From Candidatus Poseidoniaceae archaeon (GTDB lineage: Archaea; Thermoplasmatota; Poseidoniia; Poseidoniales; Poseidoniaceae), in contig CBFIJH010000010.1 of the NCBI GenBank assembly GCA_965662895.1, forward strand, positions 4,563 to 68,562: DNA of 64,000 bases. Direction: 5' to 3'. Shown piece after piece: positions 1,652-61,104 of the stretch (positions are counted from its first letter, which is position 1; every line of letters starts with the position of its first letter). A program made the position numbers and the translations under genes. The notes beneath the pieces are model-generated. The model worked only from the letters and a program-made list of their open reading frames with translations, was not told the origin of the DNA and made no database searches.

Positions 1652-1654
1652 TGT

Positions 1655-2545: not shown

Positions 2546-2595
2546 GGCTCAAGTTCTTGAACGCGTGTTGCGTGGTCTGGTTGAGCCCAATGAAG

Positions 2596-10033: not shown

Positions 10034-10160
10034 AATATCACCTCATTTTGCGGCAAGCGCAGTATGTTCTTTTCTACGGAATCACGATACACACATAATG
10101 ATTCTCCCTTGACGTTTAGTAGGATTTTTATGTCTCGGAGGACATTTTATCCCTTCCTAT

Positions 10161-11129
10161 TCAGTCAACGCCGAGGTGTTTTCGTCGAAGAAGAGCGACA
10201 ATTCCAAGCACGCCAATCAGCGTTTGTGCACCAAGCGAAGGAAGGGCGGATGAATCATCCGAATCGGATGCTGATTCTGATGAGCTCGAACCGGAATCTC
10301 CGGAATTCGAATCTGTGCTCCCGCCCGATTCATCAACATCAATACTGAACGACGTGCTGCGCTCCAAGCCGTTCCCTTCTGAAGTCACGACGATCGTGAC
10401 ATCACAAGTGCTGGATGAATGTGCAGTCGAAGGGGCAATTCTGAAACTCACCTCAAATGGCTCATTCCCATTGAGACCTGTTGGTTGGATTTGGGTGTCT
10501 TGTCCTGCTTCAAGACCTTCGATATCGAGAAGTGGGCAACTGCGAACATCGGCTTCAATTGTGGTCGCAGCATCGACAGTGTTGCCCATGTTGTTGAGAA
10601 GAAGGGTTTCTTCAATCCACGTCCCTGCATCAACGTTGCTTGCCACCAGTGTTACTTCTGGGAAGAGATTGTGATACCGAGGAACGTTGAGATTCGCATC
10701 GATTTCTTTCGGCGATACGGGAGCGCCTGCTGCGTTTTCTTCTGCGGTAACTTTGATGGTTATTTTCTCATTTGGATCATGACTTCGCACATCGTCTGCG
10801 CTCGATGTCAAAAGATTGATCGAGAACGTTTCGTTCGATTGGGCACTGACTGTAATGGACTCTTCATAGGACGGTTCGAGGAAATCAATATCGCCATCAA
10901 ATTCGACAGCAATCGTGAGACTGAGATCGTTGACTCGTGGGTTATCAACGAAGAAGACGAGCGTATCCTCGATTTTCCACTTTTCACCATCAAGAGCAAG
11001 ATCGTAGCTCGGCTCGACATCAGAATCCCAACCAAATTCCCATTCATTGTTGCCAGGAAACTGCCCCGATGTTGATGGAAGCACAGCACTCACAAGAATC
11101 AGAAGAACCAAAACTGCTCCTCGTTTCAT
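10161..11129 (-). CDS. secreted Ser/Asp-rich surface protein with signal peptide and PGF-CTERM-like C-terminal anchor
   Basis: A signal peptide (MKRGAVLVLLILVSAVLPSTSG) is followed by a Ser/Asp-rich linker (DESGGSTDSNSGDSGSSSSESASDSDDSS). The protein ends ALPSLGAQTLIGVLGIVALLRRKH, that is, a TM helix plus basic tail. Confidence 0.6.
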   Translation of the reverse strand: MKRGAVLVLLILVSAVLPSTSGQFPGNNEWEFGWDSDVEPSYDLALDGEKWKIEDTLVFFVDNPRVNDLSLTIAVEFDGDIDFLEPSYEESITVSAQSNETFSINLLTSSADDVRSHDPNEKITIKVTAEENAAGAPVSPKEIDANLNVPRYHNLFPEVTLVASNVDAGTWIEETLLLNNMGNTVDAATTIEADVRSCPLLDIEGLEAGQDTQIQPTGLNGNEPFEVSFRIAPSTAHSSSTCDVTIVVTSEGNGLERSTSFSIDVDESGGSTDSNSGDSGSSSSESASDSDDSSALPSLGAQTLIGVLGIVALLRRKHLGVD

Positions 11130-15580: not shown

Positions 15581-17584
15581 TTATGCCTTTTCATCCCAGA
15601 ATGGATTCTCTGACAGGTCTGAATCAACAGCATCAACAATTTGCGCATCAAGATAGGACTTGAGGCCTTTACCAGCGAGGCTGCCTTCTTCGCGTGATGA
15701 AATGGTCGAAACCAAAAGAAGAACGACGAGGAAGAGGAGAATTCCAGCAACAGAAAAACCGACGATGGCGCCTGTGGAGAATCCGTCTTCTGACGCAGGC
15801 ATCACCGGGCTCGTATCGTCACTCATCACCATGATTTCTGCAGTTACAAGTGGTGATGCTGAGGTTGTGCCATCTTGGTACTGGACGCCGCGCAGTGAAA
15901 TCGTATGGTTGCCCATGATGGCAATGCCGGGCAAATGCTCGATTTGGTGAATGATGTCAATGATCGACAACTCACCTGTCGGCGATCCTGGTTCGTAGGT
16001 GTGAATGTTTGACCAATCATCGCGAAGATGATTGCTTCTCCATTGCACTGTTTCCATGTCCTCACTCACCTCAAAAGAGATGCTATCTCCACGCTCAAGA
16101 TGGATTCGGTTGTCAAGCGTTGTCGGCGTTGAAATCGTTACACTAAGGTTCGAATTGAACACATAATCACGTTCTGCAGCTTCAAGAAGCGCGTCAAGTG
16201 CACGAACTTCTCCGTGTCCGTATACGTTGTTTTGTCGATTCTTTGGAATCAAATCTTCAGCACAAGGCTCGTTGGCAGCCATGTAGTGACATTGGCGGTA
16301 TGTCGCTGTTTCTTGCATAATATTGCGAATGTCAAATGGCGAGAGGTCTGGATTTGCTTGCAACATGAGCGCAGCTACGCCAGCAGCCCCGGGTGTTGCC
16401 ATGCTGGTACCACTGAATGCGACATAACCATCACCGGTATTGTGGGCCACTGACATGACGTCTGAGCCTACATAGGCGATGTTTGGTTTAATTCGACCTT
16501 CTTCTGTTGGACCTTGACTGCTGTAAATGGCAATGCTTGAGTCTTTGTCCAAAGCTCCGACTGTGATGGCATCTTCTGCGCTTCCGGGAGTACCGATTTG
16601 AGCAGAGAAAGCGCTGTTTCCTGCTGCAATGAAGAGCGCGATGCCGGCGCGAACCATCTCGTTTGCATAACGGTTCACGCTGTCCTCTTCAGAAGATGTC
16701 CATTCGATTGCACCGGGGCCTCCAAGGCTCATTGATGCAGCGCGAATGTTGAATTCGTATCGCTTCTCAACGGTCCATTCCATTCCGGCCATGACAGTGG
16801 CAAACGAACCGCTTCCACCAGAATCGAGGACCTTAACACCAACCAACGAGGCTTGTGGAGCCATGCCAGGATGTTCGTAAGTTGGTGCACCAGTTCCTGC
16901 AGTCGTTCCAGCACAGTGCGAACCATGGCCTTGGTCATCGTAAGGGTACACCTCGGTACCGTTGGTCAGGCTAGGATTGTTGACTGGATCGTAGAAGGCG
17001 ATGACTTTCGGATCGTATGTGGCAGGATCATCATCTTGGTCGTCAAGACTGGAATGATTGCCATCGATTCCTGTGTCGATAATCGCTACTGTCGTTCCAG
17101 AACCGTCGTATCCTGTTTGAGCCCATGCGGTATCAACTCCATGAAGCACAGCAGCATCACCGTTTGCAACCGTCAAAATTCCATCAAGTTCGAGCATAAC
17201 AACCCCAGGTAACTGAGAAGTTTCGAGAACATTGCCTACCGGAACACGACCTGCAAGGGCATCAATTCCCTCAAGCGTCCATTGGTGTCGATAGTCAACA
17301 TGTTCTTGCAGCATTGCAATCTCTGCATCACCAGGCGTAAACGAGAAATCGATGATGAGTGGAAGCGTCTTTTCATCATCGAGGAAGAGTGGATTCTTTT
17401 GGTGCACCTCGATCATGTCACCGATTCCGTTTCCGTCTCGGTCGACGGTCGTCTCTACCCACCAGCCTTCTTCTTCCGATTCTTCAGGGGTTGCAACAGG
17501 TACTGTGGCCAAAACTGTCGGAAGTACAAACATGGCCAGACAGAGAATTGGTAACGTCAAACGTGGCATCTTCATACGGCTCAT
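15581..17584 (-). CDS. subtilisin-like serine protease (peptidase S8) with signal peptide and C-terminal TM anchor plus cytoplasmic tail
   Basis: The Asp/His/Ser triad motifs are present (VAIIDTGIDGNH, HGSHCAGT, GTSMATPGAAG). There is an N-terminal signal peptide and a C-terminal hydrophobic segment (AGILLFLVVLLLV). Confidence 0.85.
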   Translation of the reverse strand: MSRMKMPRLTLPILCLAMFVLPTVLATVPVATPEESEEEGWWVETTVDRDGNGIGDMIEVHQKNPLFLDDEKTLPLIIDFSFTPGDAEIAMLQEHVDYRHQWTLEGIDALAGRVPVGNVLETSQLPGVVMLELDGILTVANGDAAVLHGVDTAWAQTGYDGSGTTVAIIDTGIDGNHSSLDDQDDDPATYDPKVIAFYDPVNNPSLTNGTEVYPYDDQGHGSHCAGTTAGTGAPTYEHPGMAPQASLVGVKVLDSGGSGSFATVMAGMEWTVEKRYEFNIRAASMSLGGPGAIEWTSSEEDSVNRYANEMVRAGIALFIAAGNSAFSAQIGTPGSAEDAITVGALDKDSSIAIYSSQGPTEEGRIKPNIAYVGSDVMSVAHNTGDGYVAFSGTSMATPGAAGVAALMLQANPDLSPFDIRNIMQETATYRQCHYMAANEPCAEDLIPKNRQNNVYGHGEVRALDALLEAAERDYVFNSNLSVTISTPTTLDNRIHLERGDSISFEVSEDMETVQWRSNHLRDDWSNIHTYEPGSPTGELSIIDIIHQIEHLPGIAIMGNHTISLRGVQYQDGTTSASPLVTAEIMVMSDDTSPVMPASEDGFSTGAIVGFSVAGILLFLVVLLLVSTISSREEGSLAGKGLKSYLDAQIVDAVDSDLSENPFWDEKA

Positions 17585-17689: not shown

Positions 17690-20600
17690 TTGACCTCGGA
17701 TGTCTTGCCGATTCAAATGCCGGCACCACAGAGGAAACCCCAGCAAATGGTCTCAATAGCAAACGACGCTATTTTTGCCAGTGAAGAGGAAGAAATACCG
17801 TTCAAGCCCGTCATCGTCCGGGCTCCAGGCGATACGAAAGGCGATTCACTCGAACGATTTACTGAAATCATCATGTTTGGCGTTGCAATGCTTGCAATAT
17901 GGACAGGACTTTTGGGAATCGCATTCAGTGAGAATGTGGGTGAAGAAAAATTCATGATTCTCTTCATTGGAGGTTTTGCCTCCTCCGCTATTGCTCTGTT
18001 TATGGTCGAGTTGCAAGCAAAGAAGAACGAGTATCGACTCATGATTTCTCAAAATTATCTCTTGGGTGTTTCGTTCTTCTTTATGGCAGTTGGAACACTT
18101 TGGGGCCTTCGATTCTTGGGAGGATATTTTACCCTACAAGGGTTTGAATTCGATGGAAGTGAATTTACCTTCCTCGGTGATGTTGGTTTCGATGATGCAG
18201 AAAACGAGATGTTCCTTGCCGGCCCGAATATGATTTACGTTCAGGCACTGGGAGCTGCGGCGATGTGGTTCGTGCATCGACGAATCCTTGATCGATACAA
18301 AGGTGACACGTCTTTTGGTTGGGCAGTGGCAAGTTACATCCCACTCGGATTGTTGCTCGTTGGTGTTGGCACTTGGATTGATTGGGCCAATAACGAAGTT
18401 TCCTACCCGCTTGGGATATCGATTGTCGGTTTGTGCGGTCTTGCGATGTACAGCGCATTGATGTCGAATAAATCCATCAATTTCGCAGTCGTTAGCGTCG
18501 TTTCAGGATTTATTCCCATCCTCTATGAAATCCTCAACGAAAACGCACCTCCTGGCGGCGAAGGTGGCGCAGTTTCGCTGCTTGTTTTCATTATCATCAT
18601 TCAAGGATATCTTGCAGGAAATGAACGTTTGAAGCAAACACTGGCTGAGAAAATGTCCTTCTTCATGATTGGAGCTGTTGTCATTGCAATGCTCATCGCG
18701 AGCATTCAAAATTGGAATCTTATCCTTGGCCCATTCAAACCAAACGAACTTGGAAGCGATGGTTTGGCGTCGTTGGTCACCCTCCCGGTTGCGCTTTGGA
18801 TTACCGTCTTGTGCGCCTATTTCCCCGCAACGCACAGAAACAGGGTTCCTGCAATGCCAATTGGACTGGCGTTCTCGTTGTGGACACTCAATGGCGATGA
18901 AGCAATTCTTCCTTGGGTCATCTCCATGGTTATGATATCGTACATGCTCTTTTTTGCCGAAGCAACCCGAAAATGGGTTGCAAACTTTACCATGTCTGCT
19001 CTGGCCTTCTCTTACCTTTTCAGCGACCAGATCGGATACGGTGTTGACCAAGTCGAGATGGATGCTGCGATTGCAATAGGCATCGTCATTATCGCCGAAA
19101 CGGCTCGGCGACTCGAAAAAGTATCAATTTGGAGCAGTGTACAAACCGTCACATTCATCGCACTCAGCAGCACAATTCTCGATTCGCCGTATTGGTTTGT
19201 TACCTGGCTGTTCGTGATTTACCTTCTCGGCATGGTCTACGAGTCAATGCTCAGGGCTCGAAAAGGAGACGATATGGAAAAGCGTAATGCCACGCTTGCA
19301 CTTCTCACGTCCCTGATTGTAAGCTCAGGACTGTTGTTGGCCAAGAAACTCGAAATTCCAGATGCGTACCAAATTGCTGGATTGAATGGCCTCTCTCTGG
19401 AATACCTGGTCCTCGGCGTGATTGTATATGCAATCTTCAACACTGTTCGCGATGTCGAAGTCGACATCGGTCGATTGTTATCGCTTCTTGAAACGAAGGC
19501 TTCAGGAGCATACACCTACGATTCTGAGACAAATGCATGGTACATCAAAGAGAAGCACGTCAAAGAAAAGGATGAAGTGGCAGCGACTGAAGAGGGTTCA
19601 TTCGGATCGATTGGCCGTATTTCACTTGCATTTTCGCTGTTGGCAGTAACAATTGGTATCAGCACACTCGATTCCTCCTTGCTGGAAGGTGACACATTCT
19701 ATCTCGTCGGGTTGTACATTATACCAATCGGTATCCTGTTTTGGGAAATCAATTCGATGGACGTCCTTTCCTCGCAAAGCCGGATGGTCGGGGCGTTTAT
19801 GTTGCTCATTGTTGCTGCCTCATCGATGCCAATGATGCTCCAAGTTGATCCCTCAGATGGGTTGTTTCGGGCAGGTATTTTGTATGACCTCATTTTCTTG
19901 TCAGCCCCGATTGGAGCCTTCGTCCTGATCAACAAACGAGGACTTGACAGAGATCATCTCAGCCGCCCCGCCGATCAGGTCATGCTTTGCGTCCTTTTGG
20001 TCATCGGAATGATGGACCAATCCGGCGGTTTACTCTTCCTCAGCATGTACGGTCTTGTTGCCTTAGTGGCGCTCCAATACCGACATCATGGCGTGACGAT
20101 GCTGGCACCAATAGCGACCATCTCGATGCATTGGCTAGGAGACCACGGCCTCGTATATTCTTTCTTGGATTCGTTCATTTTCTCAAATCCGGATCACATT
20201 TCAGAGATTCGAGTCCTTTGGTTTACGCGTGTTACTGGGATGCTTGTTGCTGCACACATGTTGATGCCAATGGCATGGAGCATTCTTGACCTTCAAAAGG
20301 ACGAATATGTGGAAAACCCATTCCCTTGGTTCTTACCCATGGTCTGGTTCTTGTTTGCAGTGTGGGCTGTTCTCCCAACTGCATCATGGTTGCCTCTCGT
20401 CGCATGTATCTTTGGCCTCCTGAACTCTTGGGTTCGTGGCGACATTAATCTTGTACCACTGCTGTCAGTTGGAATCATTTTCTCGTTCATGATTGGATTT
20501 ACAGATGGAGGATACTTCACTGGAGAAATCTTTGGCTATTCCATGCTCTTCTCTGGCATCATCATTTACCTGCTTTGGTTCGCGAATTCCCGTGGAATAA

Positions 20601-21718
20601 TGGAAATGAACGTCGTTGACAAAGCTCGATTGGATGCACTCATGCCTTACTCTCTCGATACGCAATTGCGTTTCCTTACGATTGCCACGCTTCTCCTTTC
20701 TTTCGATGTCGTCAACGGCATGGGTATGCTGGCAGGAAGCGGCTGGGCAACGTATGAAGCCATTCAGAAAGGCGACAAGATATCCATTCTCTTCCTACCA
20801 CTCATCGACGGTCTGACAGCTGCGAATCTGATCAATCAGTTTGAAATCGGCTCCGAGTCGATGCAGAGTTTCCTCATCGGTGGAATCTTCTTCATTGAAG
20901 GTGCTGTCATGATCTATCTCTCTTCGAGAACTGACAGCATCTATGATTCAGAGATCTTCGAATGGAAGGACGATGATGAATTCTTCAACTTCATTGAGTA
21001 CATGGGATTCTCGGGCGTTGCGTCGGCATTGACGGGTGTCATTTACGCCTTTGGAGAGGACCAAACAAACCTTGCATTCTTCCTTACAGCATTGATTCTT
21101 ACAGGACTCGCCATCACTGGTTTTGATAAATCACAAGCAGAAGTACGCTGGCGTCGAGGACTCGGCGTGTTTGGTTCAGTCCTCACATTGTTCATGCTGT
21201 TTTTGAGATTGGATGAGAACTCCGATGATGTATTGTTCAAGTACCTCACACTTGTTATCATCGGCTTGCTTGCGCTTGGATATGGTTTCCTTTACATGCA
21301 GCGAAGGTCAACTTACGACGTGCGAGATGTTGCCATTCCACAAGTCTTTGGTAATGTTGTTCCGAAAGCTCAACGCCAATCCTCTCCAAAACAGTCGAAA
21401 GATGAGGAAGAAGAGGTTGTTGAAGAGGAAGAAGAGGTTGTTGAAGAAGAAAACAACATGACTGTTGAAGAAAAGGAAATCCTCGAATTGGATGAAGCAT
21501 TCGAAGACGAATTGGATGAAATTATCGAGCCAATTGGTAATGCAACCACGGAAAACATTGGTTACATCGAGACCATGGAAGGATTCGATGTCCGTCTACC
21601 AAAGGAATCGATCGAACAAATCACTCGAACCATTGCAATGACACCTCATGAAGGGTTCAAACCGGTTGTTCGAGTCAACATGCTCGGACAAATCGTTCTC
21701 GACTTTGAACCAATTTGA
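17690..21718 (+). CDS. giant polytopic integral membrane protein (~1340 aa, >30 predicted TM helices) with acidic C-terminal soluble region; unknown function
   Basis: It is a single uninterrupted ORF. The track start is TTG at 17690, and the first ATG is at 17717. Hydrophobic helices occur throughout. The C-terminus carries EEEEVVEEEEEVVEEE followed by a ~100-aa soluble segment. Confidence 0.7.
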   Translation: MTSDVLPIQMPAPQRKPQQMVSIANDAIFASEEEEIPFKPVIVRAPGDTKGDSLERFTEIIMFGVAMLAIWTGLLGIAFSENVGEEKFMILFIGGFASSAIALFMVELQAKKNEYRLMISQNYLLGVSFFFMAVGTLWGLRFLGGYFTLQGFEFDGSEFTFLGDVGFDDAENEMFLAGPNMIYVQALGAAAMWFVHRRILDRYKGDTSFGWAVASYIPLGLLLVGVGTWIDWANNEVSYPLGISIVGLCGLAMYSALMSNKSINFAVVSVVSGFIPILYEILNENAPPGGEGGAVSLLVFIIIIQGYLAGNERLKQTLAEKMSFFMIGAVVIAMLIASIQNWNLILGPFKPNELGSDGLASLVTLPVALWITVLCAYFPATHRNRVPAMPIGLAFSLWTLNGDEAILPWVISMVMISYMLFFAEATRKWVANFTMSALAFSYLFSDQIGYGVDQVEMDAAIAIGIVIIAETARRLEKVSIWSSVQTVTFIALSSTILDSPYWFVTWLFVIYLLGMVYESMLRARKGDDMEKRNATLALLTSLIVSSGLLLAKKLEIPDAYQIAGLNGLSLEYLVLGVIVYAIFNTVRDVEVDIGRLLSLLETKASGAYTYDSETNAWYIKEKHVKEKDEVAATEEGSFGSIGRISLAFSLLAVTIGISTLDSSLLEGDTFYLVGLYIIPIGILFWEINSMDVLSSQSRMVGAFMLLIVAASSMPMMLQVDPSDGLFRAGILYDLIFLSAPIGAFVLINKRGLDRDHLSRPADQVMLCVLLVIGMMDQSGGLLFLSMYGLVALVALQYRHHGVTMLAPIATISMHWLGDHGLVYSFLDSFIFSNPDHISEIRVLWFTRVTGMLVAAHMLMPMAWSILDLQKDEYVENPFPWFLPMVWFLFAVWAVLPTASWLPLVACIFGLLNSWVRGDINLVPLLSVGIIFSFMIGFTDGGYFTGEIFGYSMLFSGIIIYLLWFANSRGIMEMNVVDKARLDALMPYSLDTQLRFLTIATLLLSFDVVNGMGMLAGSGWATYEAIQKGDKISILFLPLIDGLTAANLINQFEIGSESMQSFLIGGIFFIEGAVMIYLSSRTDSIYDSEIFEWKDDDEFFNFIEYMGFSGVASALTGVIYAFGEDQTNLAFFLTALILTGLAITGFDKSQAEVRWRRGLGVFGSVLTLFMLFLRLDENSDDVLFKYLTLVIIGLLALGYGFLYMQRRSTYDVRDVAIPQVFGNVVPKAQRQSSPKQSKDEEEEVVEEEEEVVEEENNMTVEEKEILELDEAFEDELDEIIEPIGNATTENIGYIETMEGFDVRLPKESIEQITRTIAMTPHEGFKPVVRVNMLGQIVLDFEPI
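21407..21448 (+). repeat. 2 x 21-nt tandem repeat (gaagaagaggttgttgaagag) encoding EEEVVEE units
   Basis: Direct tandem duplication in the acidic tail of the giant membrane protein. Confidence 0.8.
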
Positions 21719-23095
21719 TTATTCATCCTTGAAGATTGCAATGCGATCTGAGACAAGAGTCTCAACGGTTGCAGTAGGGTAGAGACCCCAGTAGGCTTCA
21801 CGGGCTTCTTGATTGATGTTCATGCAAAGAACAACATCACCGGGCCGGTCATCCATCGCTTGTGTTCCGTTAAGATGCATGAGCATTGGTTCAATGTTGG
21901 ACATGTTGACAACACCCCAACCCACCTGAGTGCATGGAGCAACAGGTGAAACTGGCGTGGTTCCAGACAGGGGATCCCACGTTGCAAACGAAGGATACCA
22001 TGCAGACAAATTCAATGCATTACGAACCTCTGCGTTTCGAATGGTGAAGGATTCACCATCACTCGTCGTTCCGTTAACGAGATAACCGCCTCGTTCTGTC
22101 GAAGCACCAGAACTGACATCATTGAATTCTTCTCGAAGTTCTTGAAGAATGAAGGAGAGAATACCAGCGGTTCGAGGCGTTGCAAAGGACGTCCCTGACG
22201 TCTCGTGGTAACCGTCTGTATCGTCATGATTTGGCAACACTTGTGTCCAATCGGCTGCAATATCTGGATAGGAACCACTCATGGTCTCTTTCTGGTCGTC
22301 GCCTTCCTCAGCGTATCCTGCAATACCAATGGACCATGGTGGACCCGCAGTTGCATCTTGAACGGCCGGTGAAGGTGTGTTATCAGCGGCACCAGTGTGA
22401 ATCTTGTTGTTGCCCACAACTGCTTCGTATGTCCCTGTCTCAATTCCTGGTACTGGAAGCGAACCAATCGCACCAAACGACGTGGAAATGATGTCAACAA
22501 GGGGTTGATTCGAAGCGGCCAGAACGGCTTCGGTTGAGAAACCTTCAACAAAGAAAATGACTGCATCTGGGTTTGCGTCCAAAACTGCACCCGTAACCGC
22601 CGTTCCGTGTCCATCTGAAGGGTCGTCAAGAATGTGGATATCCGTGCCTCCATCAGGCGATGTTCCAATGATTTTCGTTCCGTAAAAGTACACAATATCG
22701 GATGTCGTGATGTTATCCCAACAGTATTCTTTATCGGCTTGATATCGCTCTTCCCATGAACCTTCGAGCGTGATGTAGCACGTTTTGGTCACACCAAGCG
22801 ATTCAAGCAACCAGTTTGGATAGACCTCGTCGGTACGGAAATGATCGTGATAAACGTTGATACCCGTATCAACAGGTGCTACAACAGAGTAGTGCCTCCA
22901 ATCCGTATCTAAGTTAGCCTCTCCACTTCTGCTTTGGGTTTCATCCGCATCATCCCATGTCATTTGCCAGTAAACCAATGAGCCCGCAAGACCGAGAAGA
23001 ATGACAACGAGTAACGTACGTATTTTAGCAAAGAAAACCCAGAAGTCAAACACTTCAACACCGACATCAAGTAGGACATCAGCAGCATCGACCAT
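21719..23095 (-). CDS. divergent subtilase-like serine peptidase (S8 family) with N-terminal TM anchor
   Basis: The triad-like motifs are present (VAPVDTGINVYHDH, DGHGTAVTG, GTSFATPRTAG). There is an N-terminal hydrophobic anchor. It is convergent and abutting (0-nt gap) with the giant membrane protein gene. Confidence 0.7.
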   Translation of the reverse strand: MVDAADVLLDVGVEVFDFWVFFAKIRTLLVVILLGLAGSLVYWQMTWDDADETQSRSGEANLDTDWRHYSVVAPVDTGINVYHDHFRTDEVYPNWLLESLGVTKTCYITLEGSWEERYQADKEYCWDNITTSDIVYFYGTKIIGTSPDGGTDIHILDDPSDGHGTAVTGAVLDANPDAVIFFVEGFSTEAVLAASNQPLVDIISTSFGAIGSLPVPGIETGTYEAVVGNNKIHTGAADNTPSPAVQDATAGPPWSIGIAGYAEEGDDQKETMSGSYPDIAADWTQVLPNHDDTDGYHETSGTSFATPRTAGILSFILQELREEFNDVSSGASTERGGYLVNGTTSDGESFTIRNAEVRNALNLSAWYPSFATWDPLSGTTPVSPVAPCTQVGWGVVNMSNIEPMLMHLNGTQAMDDRPGDVVLCMNINQEAREAYWGLYPTATVETLVSDRIAIFKDE

Positions 23096-49663: not shown

Positions 49664-50650
49664 TTGGCAGACAGAGCGGGAATGAGGGCTATGTTTCGAG
49701 GCACTGTTGACCGCTCAAGCCATGAAGGTGGCCTCCTCGTGAAATTCAGTGGTTCATCACCCGCTCTCGGATCAATTATCGTTCGTGAAGAGGATGGCCA
49801 TTACATTGGCAAAATTGATGCTGTTCTCGGTTCAACAGACTCACCATTAGCGCATGTTGCTCACCTCGATCGTAAGCAGGACAATGCATCCTTCTTGGGT
49901 TCAACTGTCATCGTTCGAGCCAAGAAAGAACGTGAAGAACGCCCTCCTCGTCATGAGCAACGAAACGATCGTCGACAAGAACGAAATGAGCGTTCCTTTG
50001 ACCGTCGAGATGGCCGTTCAAGAAATGACGCTCAAAAAGACGATTGGGTATGTGCATCGTGTGAAAATGTCAACTTCTCATGGAGAAAGGAATGCAACAG
50101 TTGCGGTAAATCCAAAGATGGTAATGTGAAAGAATACAAGTCATCGTTCAGAAATGACAACCATTCCAACAATCGCCGTGAACGGCCTCGTCAGGAAAAC
50201 CATGGCCGGAACGACTGGGAATGCCCTGCATGCAACAATATCAATTTCTCATTCCGAACGGAATGCAACAAATGTGGAAAACCGAAACCAGGGGGTCGAG
50301 GCGGTGGACATTCACGTGGAGGACGTGATTCCAACCGTCGTGGTGGTTTCCGTGGAGGACGTGATTCTAACCGACGTGGTGGAAACCGAGACAGAGGGCG
50401 AAACTTTGGAGGAAATCGAGACGGTCGTGATTCCGACCGTCGTGGTGGAAACCGAGACAGAGGGCGAAACTCTGGAGAAAACAGAGGTGATCGAGATTCA
50501 GGACGAGGTCGGTCAAATCGTGATCGTGACAATCAACGTCCGAATGAGCGCTATCGAAAGGCTCGAGGAAAGCGACCTGGACATGCACACAATCGAGGTC
50601 CACAACCTATCCGGCCGCGGCGATATCAACGAAGAGATCAAGACGATTGA
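49664..50650 (+). CDS. Gar1-like H/ACA RNP domain fused to two RanBP2-type zinc fingers and an RGG/RDS-repeat tail
   Basis: The N-terminal ~85 aa match the Gar1 barrel pattern ([18 protein letters not shown]...[18 protein letters not shown]...FLGSTVIV). The first zinc finger is [22 protein letters not shown] (50045-50104) and the second is [22 protein letters not shown] (50216-50281). Both fit W-x-C-x2-C-x3-N-x6-C-x2-C exactly. An ([11 protein letters not shown])n tail follows. Confidence 0.7.
50285..50534 (+). repeat. nested ~46- and ~66-nt tandem DNA repeats encoding the RGG/RDS tail
   Basis: ggaggacgtgattc[c/t]aaccg[t/a]cgtggtgg is duplicated, and cgtggtggaaaccgagacagagggcgaaact occurs twice (~50375 and ~50441). 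Confidence 0.8.
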
Positions 50651-50661
50651 GGTGAAAAAAC

Positions 50662-51699
50662 GTGACAGCAGAATCACACTATCTCGATGCACTCGAAGCA
50701 CTGGAAGCGGATGAACGAGATGAAGCATTGAAGCATGCTCGAAAAGCTGTCAAGCTCGATTCGGAGCATGCTGATGCTTGGAGAATCATCTCTGATGCAA
50801 GCCTTCCTGGTCAACGGAAACAGCCAACACTGAAGCAGGCGGCTTCTTCTCTTTCTGCCGCAAAAAAAGTTGTCGCCCTTCAACCTGATGATTTGGCTAT
50901 GTGGGTTCGCGGTGGGCGTTTGCTCTCAGATGAACTTGGCCTGTATATGGACGCCCTTCAGTGGTGGCAGGATGCTCGACATCATGCACCTGACGAAGTA
51001 ACACCCATCGTTGAGCAAGCAGCAATATTGGCAGATATGGGACTTTACGGAGAAGCGAGTGAACGACTTCAATCCATCTTCGATGAGAATATGGATCTTG
51101 CTACAACACAATACGCACGGGTCGCTCGTTTGCATCAAATGTGTCAATTGGCCAGTGAGCAACCCTCCTCTGAGCACTTCAAACCGTGGGAAAAGCATCA
51201 CGATGGTTGGGAAGCAATCAAATTGCGAATGAACAAACCTCCGATTAGTGAATCGAAGATTTTCCTTCTTGTTACAACACCTATTCTGATGCTTGAAGTC
51301 ATCATGGCGCCTCAAGTCTTTGGTTCGAGTTTTGGAGGATTCTGTTTAACATCCGCACTTATTTTGTTCACGGTTATCATCGGAATGCGAATCTCACGAC
51401 GATGGTTCCAACGACTGAATCGTCCTGCATTCAATCTCCTACGGGCCATGGACTTCGAAACCGCAACCGGATACGTCGTCATTCCTGAAGAAATCCGTAT
51501 CTCCAAACTGTCCATGTTTATCTTGAGCAGAAGACCACCTGCGTTTCAAGAACGCATGCTGAAGATTGTAGAATCGAAAGAGACATTCAAGGGAGATTGG
51601 AAACCAAAACTCCCCGATTTTTCTTCCCATATTACGGATATGGAACCTTTCTGGGAAGAAGACTCTGAGGATGAACTCAGTTCATTCGAAGAGGAATAA
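50662..51699 (+). CDS. hypothetical protein with N-terminal TPR-like helical region, central TM segments and acidic C-terminus
   Basis: A helical-repeat N-terminus (ALKHARKAVKLDSEHADAWRI) is present, and hydrophobic helices at about aa 190-245. The final 345-aa ORF ends EDELSSFEEE. Confidence 0.45.
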   Translation: MTAESHYLDALEALEADERDEALKHARKAVKLDSEHADAWRIISDASLPGQRKQPTLKQAASSLSAAKKVVALQPDDLAMWVRGGRLLSDELGLYMDALQWWQDARHHAPDEVTPIVEQAAILADMGLYGEASERLQSIFDENMDLATTQYARVARLHQMCQLASEQPSSEHFKPWEKHHDGWEAIKLRMNKPPISESKIFLLVTTPILMLEVIMAPQVFGSSFGGFCLTSALILFTVIIGMRISRRWFQRLNRPAFNLLRAMDFETATGYVVIPEEIRISKLSMFILSRRPPAFQERMLKIVESKETFKGDWKPKLPDFSSHITDMEPFWEEDSEDELSSFEEE

Positions 51700-51725: not shown

Positions 51726-52973
51726 TCAGAGCGCAGCTTGGAATGCATCGATGACTTCTTGTTTTAGTTTCTCCCAAGGAAAGGTCGCTCCCGAAGGTTG
51801 ACGGCCGAAGTGACCACCTGCAGCAGTAACACCGTAGATAGGTGCTGCGAGCCCGAGATCACGAATGATATGCCCCGGTTTGAACGAAAAGTGCGCATCA
51901 ACAAGTTGAGCGATGGCATCGTCTGAGATTCTACCACTTCCAAAGGTGTCAACACGGATACTAACAGGGTCTGCAACACCAATCGCATAAGCCAGTTGAA
52001 TCTCGCATTCTGTCGATAGCCCTGCGGCTACGACGTGTTTCGCTGCCCAGCGGGCAGCATAAGCAGCAGAACGATCGACCTTTGTCGGGTCCTTGCCAGA
52101 AAACGCTCCACCACCATGCCGTCCACGACCACCGTACGTATCGACAATGATTTTTCGTCCAGTTAGGCCTGCATCTGCATAAGGACCACCTGGATCTGCG
52201 AACCGACCGGTTGAATTTACGTGAATTGTCGTCTTCTCTTCAAGGATGAGAGTTGATGGGACAACAGGTTCGATGATGTGTTGAATGACTTGTTCACGTA
52301 TCCAAGCCTGTTCTGCCTGCTCTGAGCCAAATTCTGCAATCATATCTTGATGCTGAACTGCAATAACGATGTTATCGGCATAAAGCGGTTGACCGTCCGT
52401 GCCATGCATCAGTGTCACCTGAGATTTCGCATCAGGTCGAGCCCATGGAAGTGTTCCATCGAGACCCGCTTTGCTCACTTTACGAGTTAACGCTTGAGAG
52501 AGTGCAATAGCCAAAGGCATCCAACGTCCTTGATGTTCGGGATAAGATTCGGTCTCATCGCATGCATAACCGAACATGAGTCCTTGATCGCCAGCACCTT
52601 GCTCATCAATGGACTGAACAACACCACGGTTGATATGAGCAGATTGATTTGTGATTAATTCCGTCACCTCGCACAGTTCTTCTGATGTTGCATCCATACC
52701 AATACTGTGCGATGTGTATCCAATGTTGGCTGCAGTTTTTCGGGCGATGGCGACATAATCTGGAGCATCGATACCGGTTGCAAGTTTCACCTCACCAGCA
52801 AGCACAATGTGTGAACGATCTTCTCGACCTTTTACGAGAGTTTCAACAGCAACCTTCGCTTTTGGGTCAAGTGAGAGACAAGCATCAACAATGGCATCAG
52901 AAATAGCATCGCATAATTTGTCAGGGTGGCCTGCAGCCACTGACTCAGAGGTAAACAACCAGTTTTGTGCCAT
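51726..52973 (-). CDS. metK: S-adenosylmethionine synthetase, bacterial/eukaryotic MetK type
   Basis: ESVAAGHPDKLCDAISDAIVDA and the GAGDQGLMFGYA signature are present, plus the C-terminal GGGAFSGKDPTKVDRSAAY. Confidence 0.9.
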   Translation of the reverse strand: MAQNWLFTSESVAAGHPDKLCDAISDAIVDACLSLDPKAKVAVETLVKGREDRSHIVLAGEVKLATGIDAPDYVAIARKTAANIGYTSHSIGMDATSEELCEVTELITNQSAHINRGVVQSIDEQGAGDQGLMFGYACDETESYPEHQGRWMPLAIALSQALTRKVSKAGLDGTLPWARPDAKSQVTLMHGTDGQPLYADNIVIAVQHQDMIAEFGSEQAEQAWIREQVIQHIIEPVVPSTLILEEKTTIHVNSTGRFADPGGPYADAGLTGRKIIVDTYGGRGRHGGGAFSGKDPTKVDRSAAYAARWAAKHVVAAGLSTECEIQLAYAIGVADPVSIRVDTFGSGRISDDAIAQLVDAHFSFKPGHIIRDLGLAAPIYGVTAAGGHFGRQPSGATFPWEKLKQEVIDAFQAAL

Positions 52974-54438: not shown

Positions 54439-57400
54439 CTATTGTTGCTGTTGCGCTTGAGCAGCATATTGTTGAGCATACTGTGCAGCCGTTGCCTCAT
54501 CGTAACCTTGCGCTACGAACTGTTGGTAGTACTGATTGTAGTATTGCGTGTACAAATCATTGCTCGCAGCGGGTGCAGCAGCAGCGGCAGGAGCCGCAGC
54601 AGCCTGTCCAACATACTGAGCGGCATAAGCTCGTGCGGTTTCCTCAGGATATCCTTGAGCAATCAATTGTTGCACATACTGTTCAGTCATGTCCATCTCT
54701 TGTCCATAACCAGCAGCAGCTGCACTCAAGTTGTCGATCTTCTCGCCGCTACCTCCACGGAGGAAGAGTACGGAAACAACGAGGAGCACCAAGACTGAGG
54801 CGATGATTCCTATGATGAGCATCATGCTATCGTCTTCTGTTTCTTCGCTTGATTGTTCGTTGTTTGACTGTTCAGTCCACTCGCCGGTTTCTGGGTCGTA
54901 GGTCCAATCACCATTTTCTGAAATCCAATCACACTGCAAGGTGGTAGTGTTCCAAACGAAACCACCGCCGGCAAGGGCAGCGCTTGAATTGGCAAGAACG
55001 CCACGACAGATACTCAATTTCACTCCTACCGACTTGGTAAGGTTGTCCGACCAACGCTCGTCATCACCTTCGTACACTCGAACCCAAATCTCTACTACTT
55101 CGCTTGTGTTGCTGTATCGGTCGCCGATGAAGAGCGACAATTCGAACGATTCTGAGTCGGAAAGAGCTTCCGTTCGGTCAAATCTGTTGTTGGATTGAAG
55201 ATTGTACTTCTCAATTGCAGATGCTTTGAAATCATCCTTGTTGAATGCTGCTTCAACATAGACTTCACCAGTTTCAGAACCTGAGAGTATGGTTCCAGTA
55301 ATGGTGTAGGTTTGATCGGAAACAAATCCGGACTCATTTGAGAAATCATCGTATTGGACTTCAGGCATTTCATCACCAAAACCATCAGGAACGACGACGA
55401 AATACATTCTGTATTTGTCAGAGAATTTGCCGGATGCGTCGTAAACGCGCAGTTCCATACGGATTTGAGACTCCGCTGTTCCTGAATCATCGACGGTTAC
55501 GTTCTTGAATCTGTAGGAGAAGAGTCCATTGCTTGCAGCGGTTTCCTCGAATGTGTGACCTTCCAAATTGAACGATGTGTCACCATAAGGCGCATCAAAG
55601 AAGATCTTCCATTCGTAGGTGACAATACCGTTGCTTCCGTCGATAGCGTCCGCATCGAAGGATTCACTAGCATCAAAGTGAACAACAAGTTCACCAGATT
55701 CAGGTAAAATGATTCGGTTGACGTCCCATTCCGCGCTCGATACGGTCTTCGTTCCAGTGAACTCAATGTTGTCAACATACTCATCTCGCATGTCAATGCT
55801 CATGTTTGCTTCAGGTGCAAATGCATCGGCCAGTACATCGTTTGTTTCAACAACTACCGAGATGATTCGAGCGTGACCTGCCTCATCATGAAGCATGAGC
55901 GTCACAGTCCATTGCGCACCCTGGAGACAACCTGTTGCTGAAGACAGGTCGGTCTTACAGAAGGTTGCTGTCGGGGACGCTTCGGAGATATGATCGGTTC
56001 CAGTCGCCATCGTCTGTCCCATCCAGTCGGTTGGGCCATCAAGAATCCAGTCTGCAGTTAATGGTACAGAGGTCCCTGTCATGTAAGCGAAATTGACCGT
56101 CGCATCGCTCTTCATGTAATGCGTTGCGTATCCACCGGTCGATGGGTCGATACCTGGCATCTCATCGTCAATTTTGAGGCCAAGATCTTGTCCCATCGAG
56201 CCAAAGCCTTCAGGATACGGCGTTACTGAGAATTCCAACATGTTTCCGAGAAGCGGGAAGGTTGTGCTGTCGGCTCGTGAGGAATACGTTGCAACATCGA
56301 TGGTCGAGACAATCATACCACCTTGGTAGTAGCTGCACGTACCCATAATGACGTCTTTGCTGTTTTCGCTTGTTCTCAAGAGGCTCTGGAAGTATCCACC
56401 GTCCTCCATGTAACCGTTGCAAACACCAGGAACATTCTGTGTGCTGACCGAGTTCGTATTGAGAACCGCAGTTGCAACCGTTCCATCGCCCTCAAATCCT
56501 TGGAAGGCTGTCGTTGAAACGTTGTCCATGATTGGGTGGAACGGATCAGCGATGTCGAGACCTGTGTACAGAATCTTCGTTCCGGGTGTGTCTCGGCTCT
56601 GAACGTCCATTCCGAACGGCAATCGACCGTTCAATCCGACATCAAGACCGTAAATTTGCGTACCTTGTGGACCAAGGTGTGCTTGGACGGTACCACCAGC
56701 GGACATGAACGACTCGAGAGTCTGTCGGTTGGCAGTTGACCCCAATTTTTGATAATAGCCACGGCCACCGCTTTCAACGTCTTTCGCTGCTACATCATCC
56801 TGCCATGGAAGGAGAATCTTGTCGTAATGCGTCATCCATCCAGAATCGAGATACGTGGTCCAATCGTTGATTGCAAACTGTGTGTAACTCATTCCTAGCG
56901 TTTGCAAGTCTTCCTTGATGGTGGAGGTTCGAGCGGTTGAATCGCTTAGGATAGCAACATCGATCTGATCGGCAAAGGTCGCGTGGAAATAACGAACGTT
57001 TCCACTCGGGTTTCCGTTTGCAAGTTCTGCGTGGAAGCTGATGTTGTAGGTATGGCCATCCATCCAATTGTTGAAGGAAGGGAACGTCAAATCAATTCGT
57101 TCGTTTGAGGCAAGTGCCGTGGTCGTCGAAGAGGATGATGCTTGATGGACTTGCATTCCGTCAGTTTCGTCAAAGACCGTCATGTAGAACATGTAATCTC
57201 CGCCGAGCACTCCGTTTGTTGCCCTGAGGTCCCAACTGTGGGCTAGACTACCATCGATTGGTAGAACACACTCGTAGGTACCATCATCAAGACATGCAAG
57301 TGTGCTCGGTTTACCGAGCGTGATGTCGACAGATTCGACGTTGAAAATCACCTGTTCGATGTTGTTCGAATCGCTCAACTCATTGTCACCAAACCAAGGG

Positions 57401-60400
57401 ACTCCCGCTGTCGTGTTGTCAAAAATCGTTTCAGCACGAATCATGTAAACGCCTGAGAAGAATTCGTGGTTTGCAACGGTTGTGGTCGCAACGTCTTCTG
57501 CATCAACGTTGGTGCGGGACGTGGTGTAGGAGGCTTCTTCAAAGAACGTAAATTCTTGCAGTGTGATGTTGTTAAACGCCACACCCTTGAAGCCATCGTT
57601 GACCCCGTTTCGACCATCGCCATCGCTCTGGAATTCAAAGTTGATGTCAACCGTTGAACCTGCTAATGAGATGCACTCGCGGAACCACTGTAGGCTGTCG
57701 GCGGCTGTGTTGTTGAGAACATAAAGATGCGTCAAGTCAATGCTTCTGGTAAGTACAAGATCGTCTGTGTTGAAGAAAACGTTGTAATTTCCACCGGAGC
57801 CATCCGTGCTTGATGAATCGCCAATGAATGAGATTTCTGCTTGATTGACGGATTCGCTTGAGTTTGTTACCCCATCATCGTTGTCGTCGTTTCGGCATGT
57901 GCCATCCTCGTCGTAATCGTTCCACTGTCCGAGAAGAACCGCTGAGTACGAATCTGAACCCTTGGTGAAGTCGACGTTAATCGATGCGTAGTCGTTCACG
58001 TCGACAATCGAGGTTCCATCGACATCGATACCATAGAAGGTGTCAGCGTAGTACTCGAAGTTCAACGAAACGAAATCTCCGGACATTCCTGTCAAATCGA
58101 CGTTCGGAATTGTGAGCGTTTCATTTTCCCAGAGGTCGCCATAACCTTGCGTAGCAGTATCACAGGGGTGGCCAAACCAATACGCATTGTTGTTGAAGAT
58201 TGGATCGTTGCACGTGGCTTCGTTGTAGATTGCTCCTTGTGGGTTGCCATCATCGCTGTAGACGTATCCTTCAGCTCCACCTTCGAACGATTCCTTACAG
58301 ATAACCGCTGGTGCGCTACACAACACATCGGACGGTGTTGCAGAGAAGACTGTCGCTTCAATGTCAAAGTCAACCATGGTATTGCCCCAGTTGTTGGTGA
58401 CAACATCGATGTCAAACAGCCCTTCAGCATACAATCCACCAGGATTGAAGTACTCGATTCCTTCGATGGTAGGGTCGTAGAGGTTGAACGGTTGTACGTA
58501 GCCGATGATGTCATCGTTAACGGATTGCTCATCCCATGCATGATTGCTCAGTGTTGCTGAAATTCGGTAGATTGTATCGTTGAGTAGATTTGCAGAAATG
58601 TTTGCAGTCTCTGTTTCACCCGGCCCAAGATTCTGGAGACTGAGTTGGCGCTGAAGCGTTTGTGGGTTCGGGAAATATGCAGTGTTCTGTTTGTAGATGG
58701 TAACGTTATCAATGGCATATCCATCACGACCGGTCCACAGCGACTCGTTATCATCAGCGATGGAACCTTCAAACCCGGAACGGAGTCGGAAACGAATGTC
58801 GACCGTTTCACCGGCCCATGGTGAAAGATCGAATTCACCGACGCCATCTTGCGTAAAGTTGTCCCATCCATAATATGTACCGGAGCTGTAGAGGCCGTAA
58901 TAGTAGACACCTTCGGCGACACCTCCGATGCCGTTGATCTTGAACGCCCGATCGTTGTCGTACCCGCCCCAAAGAGTGGAGCCTGAAAGACAAGCACCAG
59001 CAACTTGTGCAGAGGTTGGACATGCGATGACCGACCATCCAGTTTCGTCAGACCCGACTTCAATCATCGCCACATCGTCCCATAGTTCTCCAATGAGCCA
59101 TTGTCCAGTTGTAGCGTCAACAGAACCCAAGGCTCCAAAGCCAAGGTGGCGGAACAACTCAACGCTGAGGAAGGCTCGGTCAGAGCCAGTCAAATCAACA
59201 TCTGTCAATGTCAAGGCATCGTCCCAATGTCGGCCGTAACCAGACCAGAGGTCTCCACTGCTGTTGGTCTTGTATTCCCCTGCCCACATGAAGTCGGTTG
59301 GGTTCTGGTAGTTCGCAGATAGGTTCGGCGCGTTGTTTCCGTCGGTTGCACCCACGGAATTGTTCGTTTCAAGAATCCAGCTCGAGGATTGATCGACATA
59401 CTCGTCAAAGGACCACGTACATCCTCCACCGCAACCTGTTGCATCTGCAGGAGTATCGAAGTCGTGCGTAAATACTGTGGAATTCGATGAGTTGGCTTCG
59501 TCGACGACCTTGAGTTCAACATCGAGCGTCGCTGTTTGTGTGAGCGTGTCCATTCCAGTGTTTGTGACGGTGACATTGATTTCACGAGTACCTTCACCGA
59601 CTGCACCAAAGAAACGGTCAACAGGATTGATGTCTATGCCAGTAATCGCAATGTCTTTGTTGTCCATTTCGACAACAGTGACATAGTCGTACTGACCATC
59701 CCATCCAAGGTTATCAATCCAACTTCCGAAACTGTAGGACGCATGTCCAACAACGATATCAGGTGCAGAGTTCGAAGCACCCGCAAGTTGTCCAACAACG
59801 GCGATGTTTGGTCGACGGCCGGCCTCGTAGGAGAGTGGTGTCACGTAGCCACCCGATCCATCGGAGAGGGTGACTTGAACAGTTGTTGGGAAGTTGAGCC
59901 AGAAGGAGGATGTTGAACCCCCAGCTGAGTCCGATGTGTTTTGTTGGTAAGCAACGGTTGGGTTGACGAAGTCTGGTTCGCCATCGCCGTTGATGTCTGC
60001 GACAGTGACGTCATAGGAGATGTACGGCCCAAAGTAAGCAAGTGTGGGATTCGACCAGGTTCCAACCGTTGATGATGTTGAATACGTGATGTTCTCCAGA
60101 TTCCCTTGCGTCATAGCGATGGTGTCGATTGTTCCATCGTCATCGATATCACCGATGTCGAATGCTCCAAACGTGTTGGCCATGTTCACGACGTGAGTGT
60201 CGATTTGATTGGTTCCGTAAGCATAGGTTGTTGGGAATTGGTTTGAAAGACAATTGAATTCGATGATTGTAACGTTGTCGTCGTTACCCGGGTTTGTGGT
60301 TTGACCGGTCGTGTAGTCAACACCTTCGCTCCTTAGGAGCCAAATGTCCTCGTCGACGCAGGTGGTTCCAATCCCTTGTGTTTCGCCCCAATCGCCGATT

Positions 60401-61104
60401 TCGAGATCTCTGTAGGCGTTCGTGTTCGACGTTCCCAACGATGTTGTCAGTGGCGTTGTACTCGCTCCGATTGGGCCGAGGTAGGTGACGACACGTTGAT
60501 TTGAGATATCGTTGAGCAGGTCGAGGATAACGACGTCATCGTTTCCATCCTGGTTAACGTCCCCGACGGCGAGGTCCCATGCCCAAAAGTGGGTGAATCG
60601 TTGGCCGATGGTGAAGGAGTTGCTGCTGCACCCATCGTTTTCAAGGATGGTCAAGTTACCTGGTTCGCCAGCCGGCGCACCGTTATCGTCTCTCTTGAAC
60701 GGGTTGTTTCTCTGGAAAATGACGATGTCTGCCACACCATCGCCATCGAAATCACCGACTTCGAGGAATTGAACGTTGGAGAACTCATCCCATTCTGCGT
60801 TACGCGAGGTGTTCTTCGAAACCCATACGTCGTAGCGCTCAGAGAAATCTCCGTTACCATCGTTGAGGAGAATGGAGATGGTGTGCGTACCGTCTGTTGC
60901 AATCGCCATGTCGTTGTGACCATCGCAATTGAAGTCGGCAATACCGATGTCAATCGGATCACGATTTGTTGTGTAATTTCGGGCAGCGGAGGCGCTTGCA
61001 TTGGTTGCAAATGCAGCCGTCGTCGATAGAACCATAATGAGAACGAGGAAAATACTCTGAAGTTTTGACCCGATTTGGTTTGTCTTTGTTTGCATCAATA
61101 TCAC
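54439..61104 (-). CDS. giant (2221 aa) cell-surface protein with N-terminal FG-GAP/integrin-alpha-like repeats, long beta-rich ectodomain, C-terminal TM helix and repetitive cytoplasmic tail
   Basis: A signal peptide is present. FG-GAP-like DxDxDG motifs follow (DFNCDGHNDMAI, GDFDGDGVADIV, GDVNQDGNDDVV, DINGDGEPDFV). A TM helix (LIIGIIASVLVLLVVSVLFL) is followed by a 106-aa Ala/Gln/Tyr-rich tail. Confidence 0.75.
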   Translation of the reverse strand: MILMQTKTNQIGSKLQSIFLVLIMVLSTTAAFATNASASAARNYTTNRDPIDIGIADFNCDGHNDMAIATDGTHTISILLNDGNGDFSERYDVWVSKNTSRNAEWDEFSNVQFLEVGDFDGDGVADIVIFQRNNPFKRDDNGAPAGEPGNLTILENDGCSSNSFTIGQRFTHFWAWDLAVGDVNQDGNDDVVILDLLNDISNQRVVTYLGPIGASTTPLTTSLGTSNTNAYRDLEIGDWGETQGIGTTCVDEDIWLLRSEGVDYTTGQTTNPGNDDNVTIIEFNCLSNQFPTTYAYGTNQIDTHVVNMANTFGAFDIGDIDDDGTIDTIAMTQGNLENITYSTSSTVGTWSNPTLAYFGPYISYDVTVADINGDGEPDFVNPTVAYQQNTSDSAGGSTSSFWLNFPTTVQVTLSDGSGGYVTPLSYEAGRRPNIAVVGQLAGASNSAPDIVVGHASYSFGSWIDNLGWDGQYDYVTVVEMDNKDIAITGIDINPVDRFFGAVGEGTREINVTVTNTGMDTLTQTATLDVELKVVDEANSSNSTVFTHDFDTPADATGCGGGCTWSFDEYVDQSSSWILETNNSVGATDGNNAPNLSANYQNPTDFMWAGEYKTNSSGDLWSGYGRHWDDALTLTDVDLTGSDRAFLSVELFRHLGFGALGSVDATTGQWLIGELWDDVAMIEVGSDETGWSVIACPTSAQVAGACLSGSTLWGGYDNDRAFKINGIGGVAEGVYYYGLYSSGTYYGWDNFTQDGVGEFDLSPWAGETVDIRFRLRSGFEGSIADDNESLWTGRDGYAIDNVTIYKQNTAYFPNPQTLQRQLSLQNLGPGETETANISANLLNDTIYRISATLSNHAWDEQSVNDDIIGYVQPFNLYDPTIEGIEYFNPGGLYAEGLFDIDVVTNNWGNTMVDFDIEATVFSATPSDVLCSAPAVICKESFEGGAEGYVYSDDGNPQGAIYNEATCNDPIFNNNAYWFGHPCDTATQGYGDLWENETLTIPNVDLTGMSGDFVSLNFEYYADTFYGIDVDGTSIVDVNDYASINVDFTKGSDSYSAVLLGQWNDYDEDGTCRNDDNDDGVTNSSESVNQAEISFIGDSSSTDGSGGNYNVFFNTDDLVLTRSIDLTHLYVLNNTAADSLQWFRECISLAGSTVDINFEFQSDGDGRNGVNDGFKGVAFNNITLQEFTFFEEASYTTSRTNVDAEDVATTTVANHEFFSGVYMIRAETIFDNTTAGVPWFGDNELSDSNNIEQVIFNVESVDITLGKPSTLACLDDGTYECVLPIDGSLAHSWDLRATNGVLGGDYMFYMTVFDETDGMQVHQASSSSTTTALASNERIDLTFPSFNNWMDGHTYNISFHAELANGNPSGNVRYFHATFADQIDVAILSDSTARTSTIKEDLQTLGMSYTQFAINDWTTYLDSGWMTHYDKILLPWQDDVAAKDVESGGRGYYQKLGSTANRQTLESFMSAGGTVQAHLGPQGTQIYGLDVGLNGRLPFGMDVQSRDTPGTKILYTGLDIADPFHPIMDNVSTTAFQGFEGDGTVATAVLNTNSVSTQNVPGVCNGYMEDGGYFQSLLRTSENSKDVIMGTCSYYQGGMIVSTIDVATYSSRADSTTFPLLGNMLEFSVTPYPEGFGSMGQDLGLKIDDEMPGIDPSTGGYATHYMKSDATVNFAYMTGTSVPLTADWILDGPTDWMGQTMATGTDHISEASPTATFCKTDLSSATGCLQGAQWTVTLMLHDEAGHARIISVVVETNDVLADAFAPEANMSIDMRDEYVDNIEFTGTKTVSSAEWDVNRIILPESGELVVHFDASESFDADAIDGSNGIVTYEWKIFFDAPYGDTSFNLEGHTFEETAASNGLFSYRFKNVTVDDSGTAESQIRMELRVYDASGKFSDKYRMYFVVVPDGFGDEMPEVQYDDFSNESGFVSDQTYTITGTILSGSETGEVYVEAAFNKDDFKASAIEKYNLQSNNRFDRTEALSDSESFELSLFIGDRYSNTSEVVEIWVRVYEGDDERWSDNLTKSVGVKLSICRGVLANSSAALAGGGFVWNTTTLQCDWISENGDWTYDPETGEWTEQSNNEQSSEETEDDSMMLIIGIIASVLVLLVVSVLFLRGGSGEKIDNLSAAAAGYGQEMDMTEQYVQQLIAQGYPEETARAYAAQYVGQAAAAPAAAAAPAASNDLYTQYYNQYYQQFVAQGYDEATAAQYAQQYAAQAQQQQ

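Follow-up and report, generated by a model that had tools for sequence, protein, structure and literature searches.

Do archaea also equip Gar1, a subunit of the H/ACA ribonucleoprotein (RNP), with accessory RNA-binding modules? In the H/ACA literature the arginine-glycine-glycine (RGG) and GAR domains of Gar1 are described as eukaryote-specific and the archaeal protein as a bare core (PMC8096250). The question is raised by a gene on the forward strand of a 64,000-nucleotide stretch of DNA from a Candidatus Poseidoniaceae archaeon (assembly GCA_965662895.1, contig CBFIJH010000010.1), which we refer to as the window. A first-pass annotation, made from the letters alone, had read the product as a Gar1 domain fused to two RanBP2-type zinc fingers and an RGG tail, and the fold, profile and finger evidence supports this interpretation. 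We propose that the protein is the Gar1 ortholog of the Marine Group II archaea (Poseidoniales), to which an RNA-binding arm has been added, and we give this reading a probability of about 0.6. The coding sequence extends from 49691 to 50650 (319 aa plus stop); residues are numbered from its ATG, and all of its features lie on the forward strand.

The N-terminal domain (49691-49924, residues 1-78) is a Gar1-type six-stranded beta-barrel. It was modelled as such by AlphaFold2 from a 51-sequence alignment, with a predicted local distance difference test score (pLDDT) above 90 for residues 1-70 and of 85 for residues 71-80. Profile-to-sequence searching was too weak for this barrel: its hidden Markov model (HMM) reached no Gar1 chain among the PDB sequences, and hhalign against the single Pyrococcus furiosus Gar1 sequence gave a probability of 5.8% (E 0.0066). 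We used fold searches, and hhalign with a Thermococcales profile, instead. In both fold searches, five Gar1/Naf1 chains ranked first; they had the lowest root mean square deviation (rmsd) and were covered over nearly their full length. When 185 family barrels were combined into a profile and compared with a profile of 82 Thermococcales Gar1 sequences, hhalign gave a probability of 95% and an E value of 3.7e-8, with 71 of 82 columns co-linear. Gar1 was the sole recurrent Pfam match, found for 19 of 20 diverse family barrels (the RimM PRC domain was matched by 1 of the 20), and it was matched by 9 of 10 distant family members. Across 30 diverse members it was the only recurrent family in Pfam and NCBIfam combined, and two NCBIfam Gar1 equivalogs align over near full length (E ~0.003). 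Judged from these sequence and model comparisons, the barrel is a true Gar1 domain that has diverged strongly.

The barrel is followed by two RanBP2-type zinc fingers, finger 1 at 50036-50125 (residues 116-145; core 50045-50104; pLDDT ~95) and finger 2 at 50207-50296 (residues 173-202; core 50216-50275; pLDDT 85-95). The consensus W-x-C-x2-C-x3-N-x6-C-x2-C is matched exactly by the two cores and by nothing else in the six frames of the window, and no match arose in 50 shuffled versions of it. Two stretches of the protein score 43.8 bits with Pfam Zn_ribbon_RanBP (PF00641), against a cut-off of 27. The fingers are confidently modelled (pLDDT 85-96), and in the stretches between barrel and finger 1 and between the two fingers the pLDDT falls below 50. 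These stretches belong to two linkers predicted to be disordered: linker 1, which is Arg/Glu/Asp-rich (49925-50035, residues 79-115; pLDDT <50 at residues 90-115), and linker 2 (50126-50206, residues 146-172; pLDDT <50 at residues 153-170).

RNA-binding RanBP2 fingers have been described in splicing proteins and FET proteins of eukaryotes. In a search of PDB sequences, the significant relatives were RNA-binding fingers only (FUS 6g99, ZRANB2 2k1p/3g9y, ZNF265, RBM10 and TAF15). The RBM5 finger was marginal (E 0.068), and the Nup153, HOIL-1L and MDM2 fingers, from the Ran, ubiquitin and p53 pathways, were not significant. The closest solved relative of finger 1 is the FUS finger 6g99 (E 2.5e-7 over 26 residues), and the block CENxNFSWRxECNxC is identical between finger 1 and human FUS. 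The determinants of GGU recognition by such fingers are an Asp before the Trp ('D4'), an aromatic residue at 'position 17', Arg or Trp at 'position 19' and an Arg at 'R20' (PMC6384913). D-W, F17 and R20 are present in both of our fingers; position 19 is W in finger 1 and F in finger 2. Among 182 unique fingers of the family, the Asp before Trp, the Trp itself, the aromatic residue (F/Y) at position 17 and the Arg at position 20 are conserved in 182 of 182. By their sequence signature the fingers are of the RNA-binding kind, with selection acting on the RNA-contact surface, and they would be expected to bind single-stranded RNA with a GGU/GGN preference.

We also considered a ubiquitin- or Ran-binding finger of the NZF type. 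NZF-type fingers are told by a T-F dipeptide after the second Cys; this dipeptide is missing here and PDB relatives of that kind were not significant, which rules the type out. As a separate observation, some related lineages (P0199, P0192, P0197 and P0217) carry RanBP2-like variant fingers with a C-x4-C last knuckle, e.g. GDWICHKCKNHNYASKKICNRSSCD, in which Lys replaces the otherwise invariant Arg. P0217 pairs a variant finger with a classical one. The variant fingers of some lineages still exceed the Pfam cut-off.

Beyond finger 2 lies an RGG / RDSNRRGG low-complexity tail (50297-50545, residues 203-285), which is predicted to be disordered (pLDDT 33-41) and has a net charge of +14. Its 83 residues comprise 31% R, 27% G, 13% D and 13% N (R+G 58%). 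Six RGG tripeptides fall within residues 203-253, including RGGGHSRGG and RGGFRGG, so that the repeats are clustered in a region of predicted disorder, as is characteristic of RGG/GAR segments. The repeat tail that had been proposed to follow the fingers is thus present. A 66-nt tandem DNA repeat inside it (50363-50499; 2.1 copies, 84% matches) suggests that repeats have expanded recently. Close relatives have tails of 95 to 153 aa, and proteins whose cores are more than 75% identical can differ by tens of residues in the tail, a variation that fits the tandem repeat.

The protein ends in a conserved basic peptide (50546-50647, residues 286-319) with the consensus FRKARGKRxGHAHNRxPxP in the 51-sequence alignment. 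A tightly defined version of this motif, G[HK][AHS][HSA][NKS][RK], occurs within the last 45 residues of 60 of the 176 family proteins longer than 200 aa; among the matches listed, GHAHN is found in most Poseidoniaceae C-termini. Looser forms of the end peptide, KGHH...DPxPL, were seen outside Poseidoniaceae. Canonical Gar1 of Thermococcales has a K/R-rich tail of 20-35 aa, and the Poseidoniales arm therefore looks less like an appendage gained from scratch than like an elaborated form of an ancestral basic tail; we infer that it grew from such an existing tail. Thermococcales tails close with a different conserved basic motif, RRPAPKKRG.

The same fusion was found widely in relatives and metagenomes. 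A search of 5.8 billion clustered proteins returned 223 relatives; those with a named source came from Poseidoniales, 'Euryarchaeota' or Thermoplasmatota metagenome-assembled genomes, bar one labelled Woesearchaeota. They appear under names such as 'zinc finger Ran-binding domain-containing protein' (NCBI) and 'rRNA processing protein Gar1' (IMG), and the databases annotate the separate pieces only, not the fusion. HMMER searching of 1.84 billion representatives gave 121 matches, nearly all with the N-terminal signature of the family; no canonical Gar1 of other archaea, and no bridge to it, was among them. The homolog search with P. furiosus Gar1 reached Thermococcales only, at identities of at least 69%. 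When one genome per GTDB species was scanned, the barrel was encoded in 280 genomes. The best 80 loci come from 80 different assemblies, each with a single copy in a syntenic position, and share the order ABC ATPase, ABC permease, ~640-aa surface protein, gar1-ZnF, ~345-aa protein and AdoHcyase. A 2.5-Mb contig (ERZ28548091 north_1__contig_21628) shows this neighbourhood too, and where the block has been rearranged in one lineage, gar1 remains next to the ~345-aa gene.

Within the family, the barrel is combined with fingers and tails in different ways. At least one finger is present in 170 of 176 full-size proteins (200-600 aa), with 0 fingers in 6 proteins, 1 in 53, 2 in 97, 3 in 19 and 4 in 1. 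RGG tripeptides are abundant in the clade of the window and absent from 49 of the 176; an Arg/Lys-rich disordered region is usual (median 31% R+K). P0205 is fingerless with a pure RGG/YRGGG tail, and P0236 and P0347 have just a Lys/Arg-rich tail of 70-80 aa. We regard the fusion as ancient within the order, with C-x4-C variant fingers in other lineages and the joining of barrel and finger predating the diversification of Poseidoniales. We note one ortholog, at 10001-10458 of locus L081 on the 2.5-Mb long-read contig, that was called as 93-aa and 59-aa pieces with overlapping ends. The protein of this lineage is without a zinc finger, and an intact 151-aa form, P0236, falls in the same 90% cluster; the split is probably an assembly frameshift.

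The extent of the gene was adjusted relative to the first-pass annotation. Positions 49664-50650 are indeed one unbroken open reading frame (ORF) on the forward strand, but the TTG at 49664 that had been taken as its start did not hold up. Nearly all homologs open with MF-x-G, and several related loci have an in-frame stop 4 codons upstream of the equivalent ATG with no other start between. On these grounds the true start is most likely the ATG at 49691 (MFRG...), which gives a protein of 319 rather than 328 aa. A GAGGG at 49684-49688, 3-7 nt upstream of this ATG, is a candidate Shine-Dalgarno motif; GAGGG/GAGGA-like motifs are present in close relatives, and a Shine-Dalgarno-like motif in 35 of 65 loci overall. 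ORFs in other frames, at 50154-50714 (forward) and 50191-50532 (reverse), were rejected as genes: they arise from the low-complexity, purine-skewed region that encodes the RGG repeats, and neither the conserved fingers nor the end peptide is encoded outside the gar1 frame.

We suggest how such a protein might work. The barrel would dock on the catalytic domain of the RNA-guided pseudouridine synthase Cbf5 in the H/ACA RNP, as in archaeal Gar1 and the Pyrococcus structures, and would there control the thumb loop of Cbf5 and, through this loop, the loading of substrate and the release of product. This core would be extended by a flexible, strongly basic arm, in which two independent fingers of the FUS/ZRANB2 class may each grip a short single-stranded GGU/GGN-like motif, the Arg-rich and RGG low-complexity segments may bind RNA non-specifically, and the conserved basic peptide forms the end. 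The arm would most likely capture or hold substrate RNA (rRNA, tRNA or other) near the RNP, or keep the RNP on nascent rRNA. This is the job that has been proposed for the GAR/RGG domains of eukaryotic Gar1, which change the dynamics of the RNP, promote catalysis on substrate that is already bound and can reduce turnover (PMC8096250). The analysis itself establishes what the domains are, that the RNA-contact residues are conserved, that the linkers are predicted to be disordered, and that the gene is conserved across the order as a syntenic single copy; binding to Cbf5, RNA binding with its specificity and a role in pseudouridylation are inferred. We consider it improbable that the arm goes further and acts as a sequence-reading, multivalent device that steers the H/ACA complex to particular RNAs or into a condensate-like compartment analogous to the nucleolus.

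The housekeeping-like distribution (280 species genomes, single copy, conserved locus) argues for a Gar1 ortholog, and several observations weigh against it. Pfam Gar1 (PF04410) scores only 16-20 bits on the barrel, under its cut-off of 29.3, and the NCBIfam Gar1 equivalog NF009631 scores 17.9 bits against a cut-off of 139; by these scores the barrel is unusually divergent, and its place in the Gar1 family is carried by fold and profile-profile homology, with the curated cut-offs not reached. The conserved partner gene encodes an uncharacterised TPR-like membrane protein and not an RNA-processing factor. Genes for Cbf5, Nop10 and L7Ae are absent from the window, and an Rfam scan of the window found no RNA genes and no match to an H/ACA guide RNA.

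Divergence of this kind raises the question of whether the protein is Gar1 at all. The N-terminus might be an unrelated small barrel of the same superfold, such as eL33/L35Ae, the RimM N-terminal domain or an EF-Tu domain 2-like fold, with no link to H/ACA RNPs. We regard this as essentially excluded by the rank and low rmsd of Gar1/Naf1 chains in both fold searches, by the co-linear hhalign alignment, and by the recurrence of Gar1 in Pfam where RimM PRC appears once. Nearer to the proposed function, the protein could be a paralog derived from Gar1, or a Naf1-like factor, that exists beside a separate bare Gar1 and either chaperones assembly or takes part in another RNA process, for example ribosome assembly, the decay of RNA or the control of translation. 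Its barrel would then either still bind Cbf5 or be wholly re-used, and the mature H/ACA RNP would contain the bare Gar1. Naf1, the eukaryotic H/ACA assembly factor, is likewise a larger protein, for the most part disordered, in which a domain has the Gar1 fold. Its structural match is weaker than that of Gar1, it lacks fingers and RGG repeats, and it is known only in eukaryotes. Given this difference, the single-copy and order-wide distribution, and the short, ordinary-looking forms that occupy the same locus in some lineages, we think a paralog or Naf1-like factor unlikely.

The origin of the arm is a different matter, as a foreign source of the finger and Arg-rich module would be compatible with the protein being Gar1. 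The module could have been taken from a eukaryote by horizontal transfer, e.g. from a FET- or ZRANB2-like gene of a marine protist. To our knowledge, RanBP2 fingers are overwhelmingly eukaryotic, and both the similarity of finger 1 to human FUS and the order of finger then RGG, which mirrors the C-terminal half of FUS, point in this direction. Recent transfer is unsupported, since the GC content of the gene (0.46-0.54) is similar to that of its flanks, with no compositional anomaly. The antiquity of the fusion within the order and its variant fingers in other lineages also speak against a eukaryotic donor. The finger is too short for a reliable phylogeny and most of its identical positions are functionally constrained, so that finger similarity does not separate convergence from shared ancestry. 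Overall, we treat transfer from a eukaryote as possible but doubtful.

Among known systems, one that comes close to the Poseidoniales protein is archaeal Gar1 (e.g. P. furiosus PF1791; PDB 2EY4, 2HVY, 3HAY). The barrel is the same (rmsd 1.3-1.8 Å over 72-78 residues), its hallmark segments P-x-L and G-x-V-x-D-V-x-G-x-x-x-x-P are co-linear, and in both proteins an N-terminal barrel is followed by a basic disordered tail. They differ in sequence, with only ~19-21% identity in structural alignments and the Poseidoniales barrel under the curated HMM cut-offs, and in the tail, which is ~240 aa instead of ~20-35 aa and contains RGG repeats, a pair of fingers and its own conserved end peptide. In eukaryotes, Gar1 (yeast Gar1p, human GAR1) has GAR domains on both sides of the core and no fingers, whereas the Poseidoniales extension is C-terminal only, also rich in D/N/S, and without RGG in the 49 family proteins noted above. 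These differences are most simply explained by independent acquisition.

The FET proteins (FUS, EWS, TAF15) and ZRANB2/ZNF265 share the RNA-contact signature D-W...N-x-N-F-S-W/F-R...C-N with the Poseidoniales fingers. As here, RGG boxes come after the finger in FUS; in ZRANB2 an Arg-rich low-complexity tail comes after a tandem pair of fingers. In contrast to these proteins, the Poseidoniales protein has no RRM, SYGQ prion-like domain or RS domain, and its fingers sit on a Gar1 barrel. A Pfam scan of the protein found no RRM or other additional domain, which leaves the ZnF-RGG part as the common ground; the protein resembles the FET and ZRANB2 families in part and is not a member of either. 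Because an archaeal host has no spliceosomal introns, its cellular targets must differ from those of FET proteins and ZRANB2.

Full-text literature searches gave no account of a Gar1-RanBP2 fusion, of archaeal RanBP2 fingers or of an RGG-bearing archaeal Gar1. The finding contradicts the textbook contrast between a 'bare' archaeal and a GAR-bearing eukaryotic Gar1, in that a whole globally abundant archaeal order has both kinds of module on Gar1, with the RNA-contact residues under strong purifying selection. If the arm does act on the H/ACA complex, and whether it was gained independently or from eukaryotes, then neither the GAR domains of Gar1 nor FET-like finger-RGG modules would be eukaryote-specific inventions. 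Poseidoniales would offer a naturally occurring system without introns in which to ask what accessory RNA-binding arms contribute to an H/ACA RNP, and a case in which convergent evolution of finger-RGG modules can be weighed against their transfer between domains of life. The 182 natural finger variants form a compact, recombinant-friendly set for RNA-binding design. On a practical level, curated HMM cut-offs miss the Gar1 of Poseidoniales, so genomes of this order may wrongly seem to lack the subunit.

Downstream of gar1-ZnF, the ~345-aa gene occupies 50662-51699 (forward strand) in the window, 10455-11462 in L081 and 8483-9544 in a further locus, L082. It starts 11 nt after gar1 in the window, and overlaps by 4 nt with gar1 in L082 and with the 59-aa fragment in L081. 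The two genes remain adjacent and co-oriented despite rearrangement, and therefore probably form an operon. A faint TPR match in the N-terminal part is the only family match of the ~345-aa protein; by eye, it has two putative transmembrane helices and an acidic C-terminal tail. Next in the window is a bacterial-type S-adenosylmethionine synthetase, MetK (51726-52973, reverse strand; Pfam S-AdoMet_synt N, M and C domains). MetK lies between the TPR-like gene and AdoHcyase in just 4 of 80 related loci; in loci such as L002 the TPR-like gene is followed at once by AdoHcyase. MetK appears to be an insertion specific to a clade.

The genes of the window are otherwise metabolic, transporter and surface-protein genes. 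Two very large ORFs, one of 2221 aa (54439-61104, reverse strand) and one of 1342 aa without a Pfam domain (17690-21718, forward strand), probably encode surface proteins; orthologs of the former in L081 and L082 gave faint FG-GAP/DUF7151 matches only. Two subtilase genes are located at 15581-17584 and 21719-23095. An archaeal-type shikimate pathway cluster at 62-4982 (forward strand) encodes a DeoC-family aldolase, 3-dehydroquinate synthase II, a GHMP kinase and chorismate synthase, the last followed by a gene of the amino-acid kinase family.
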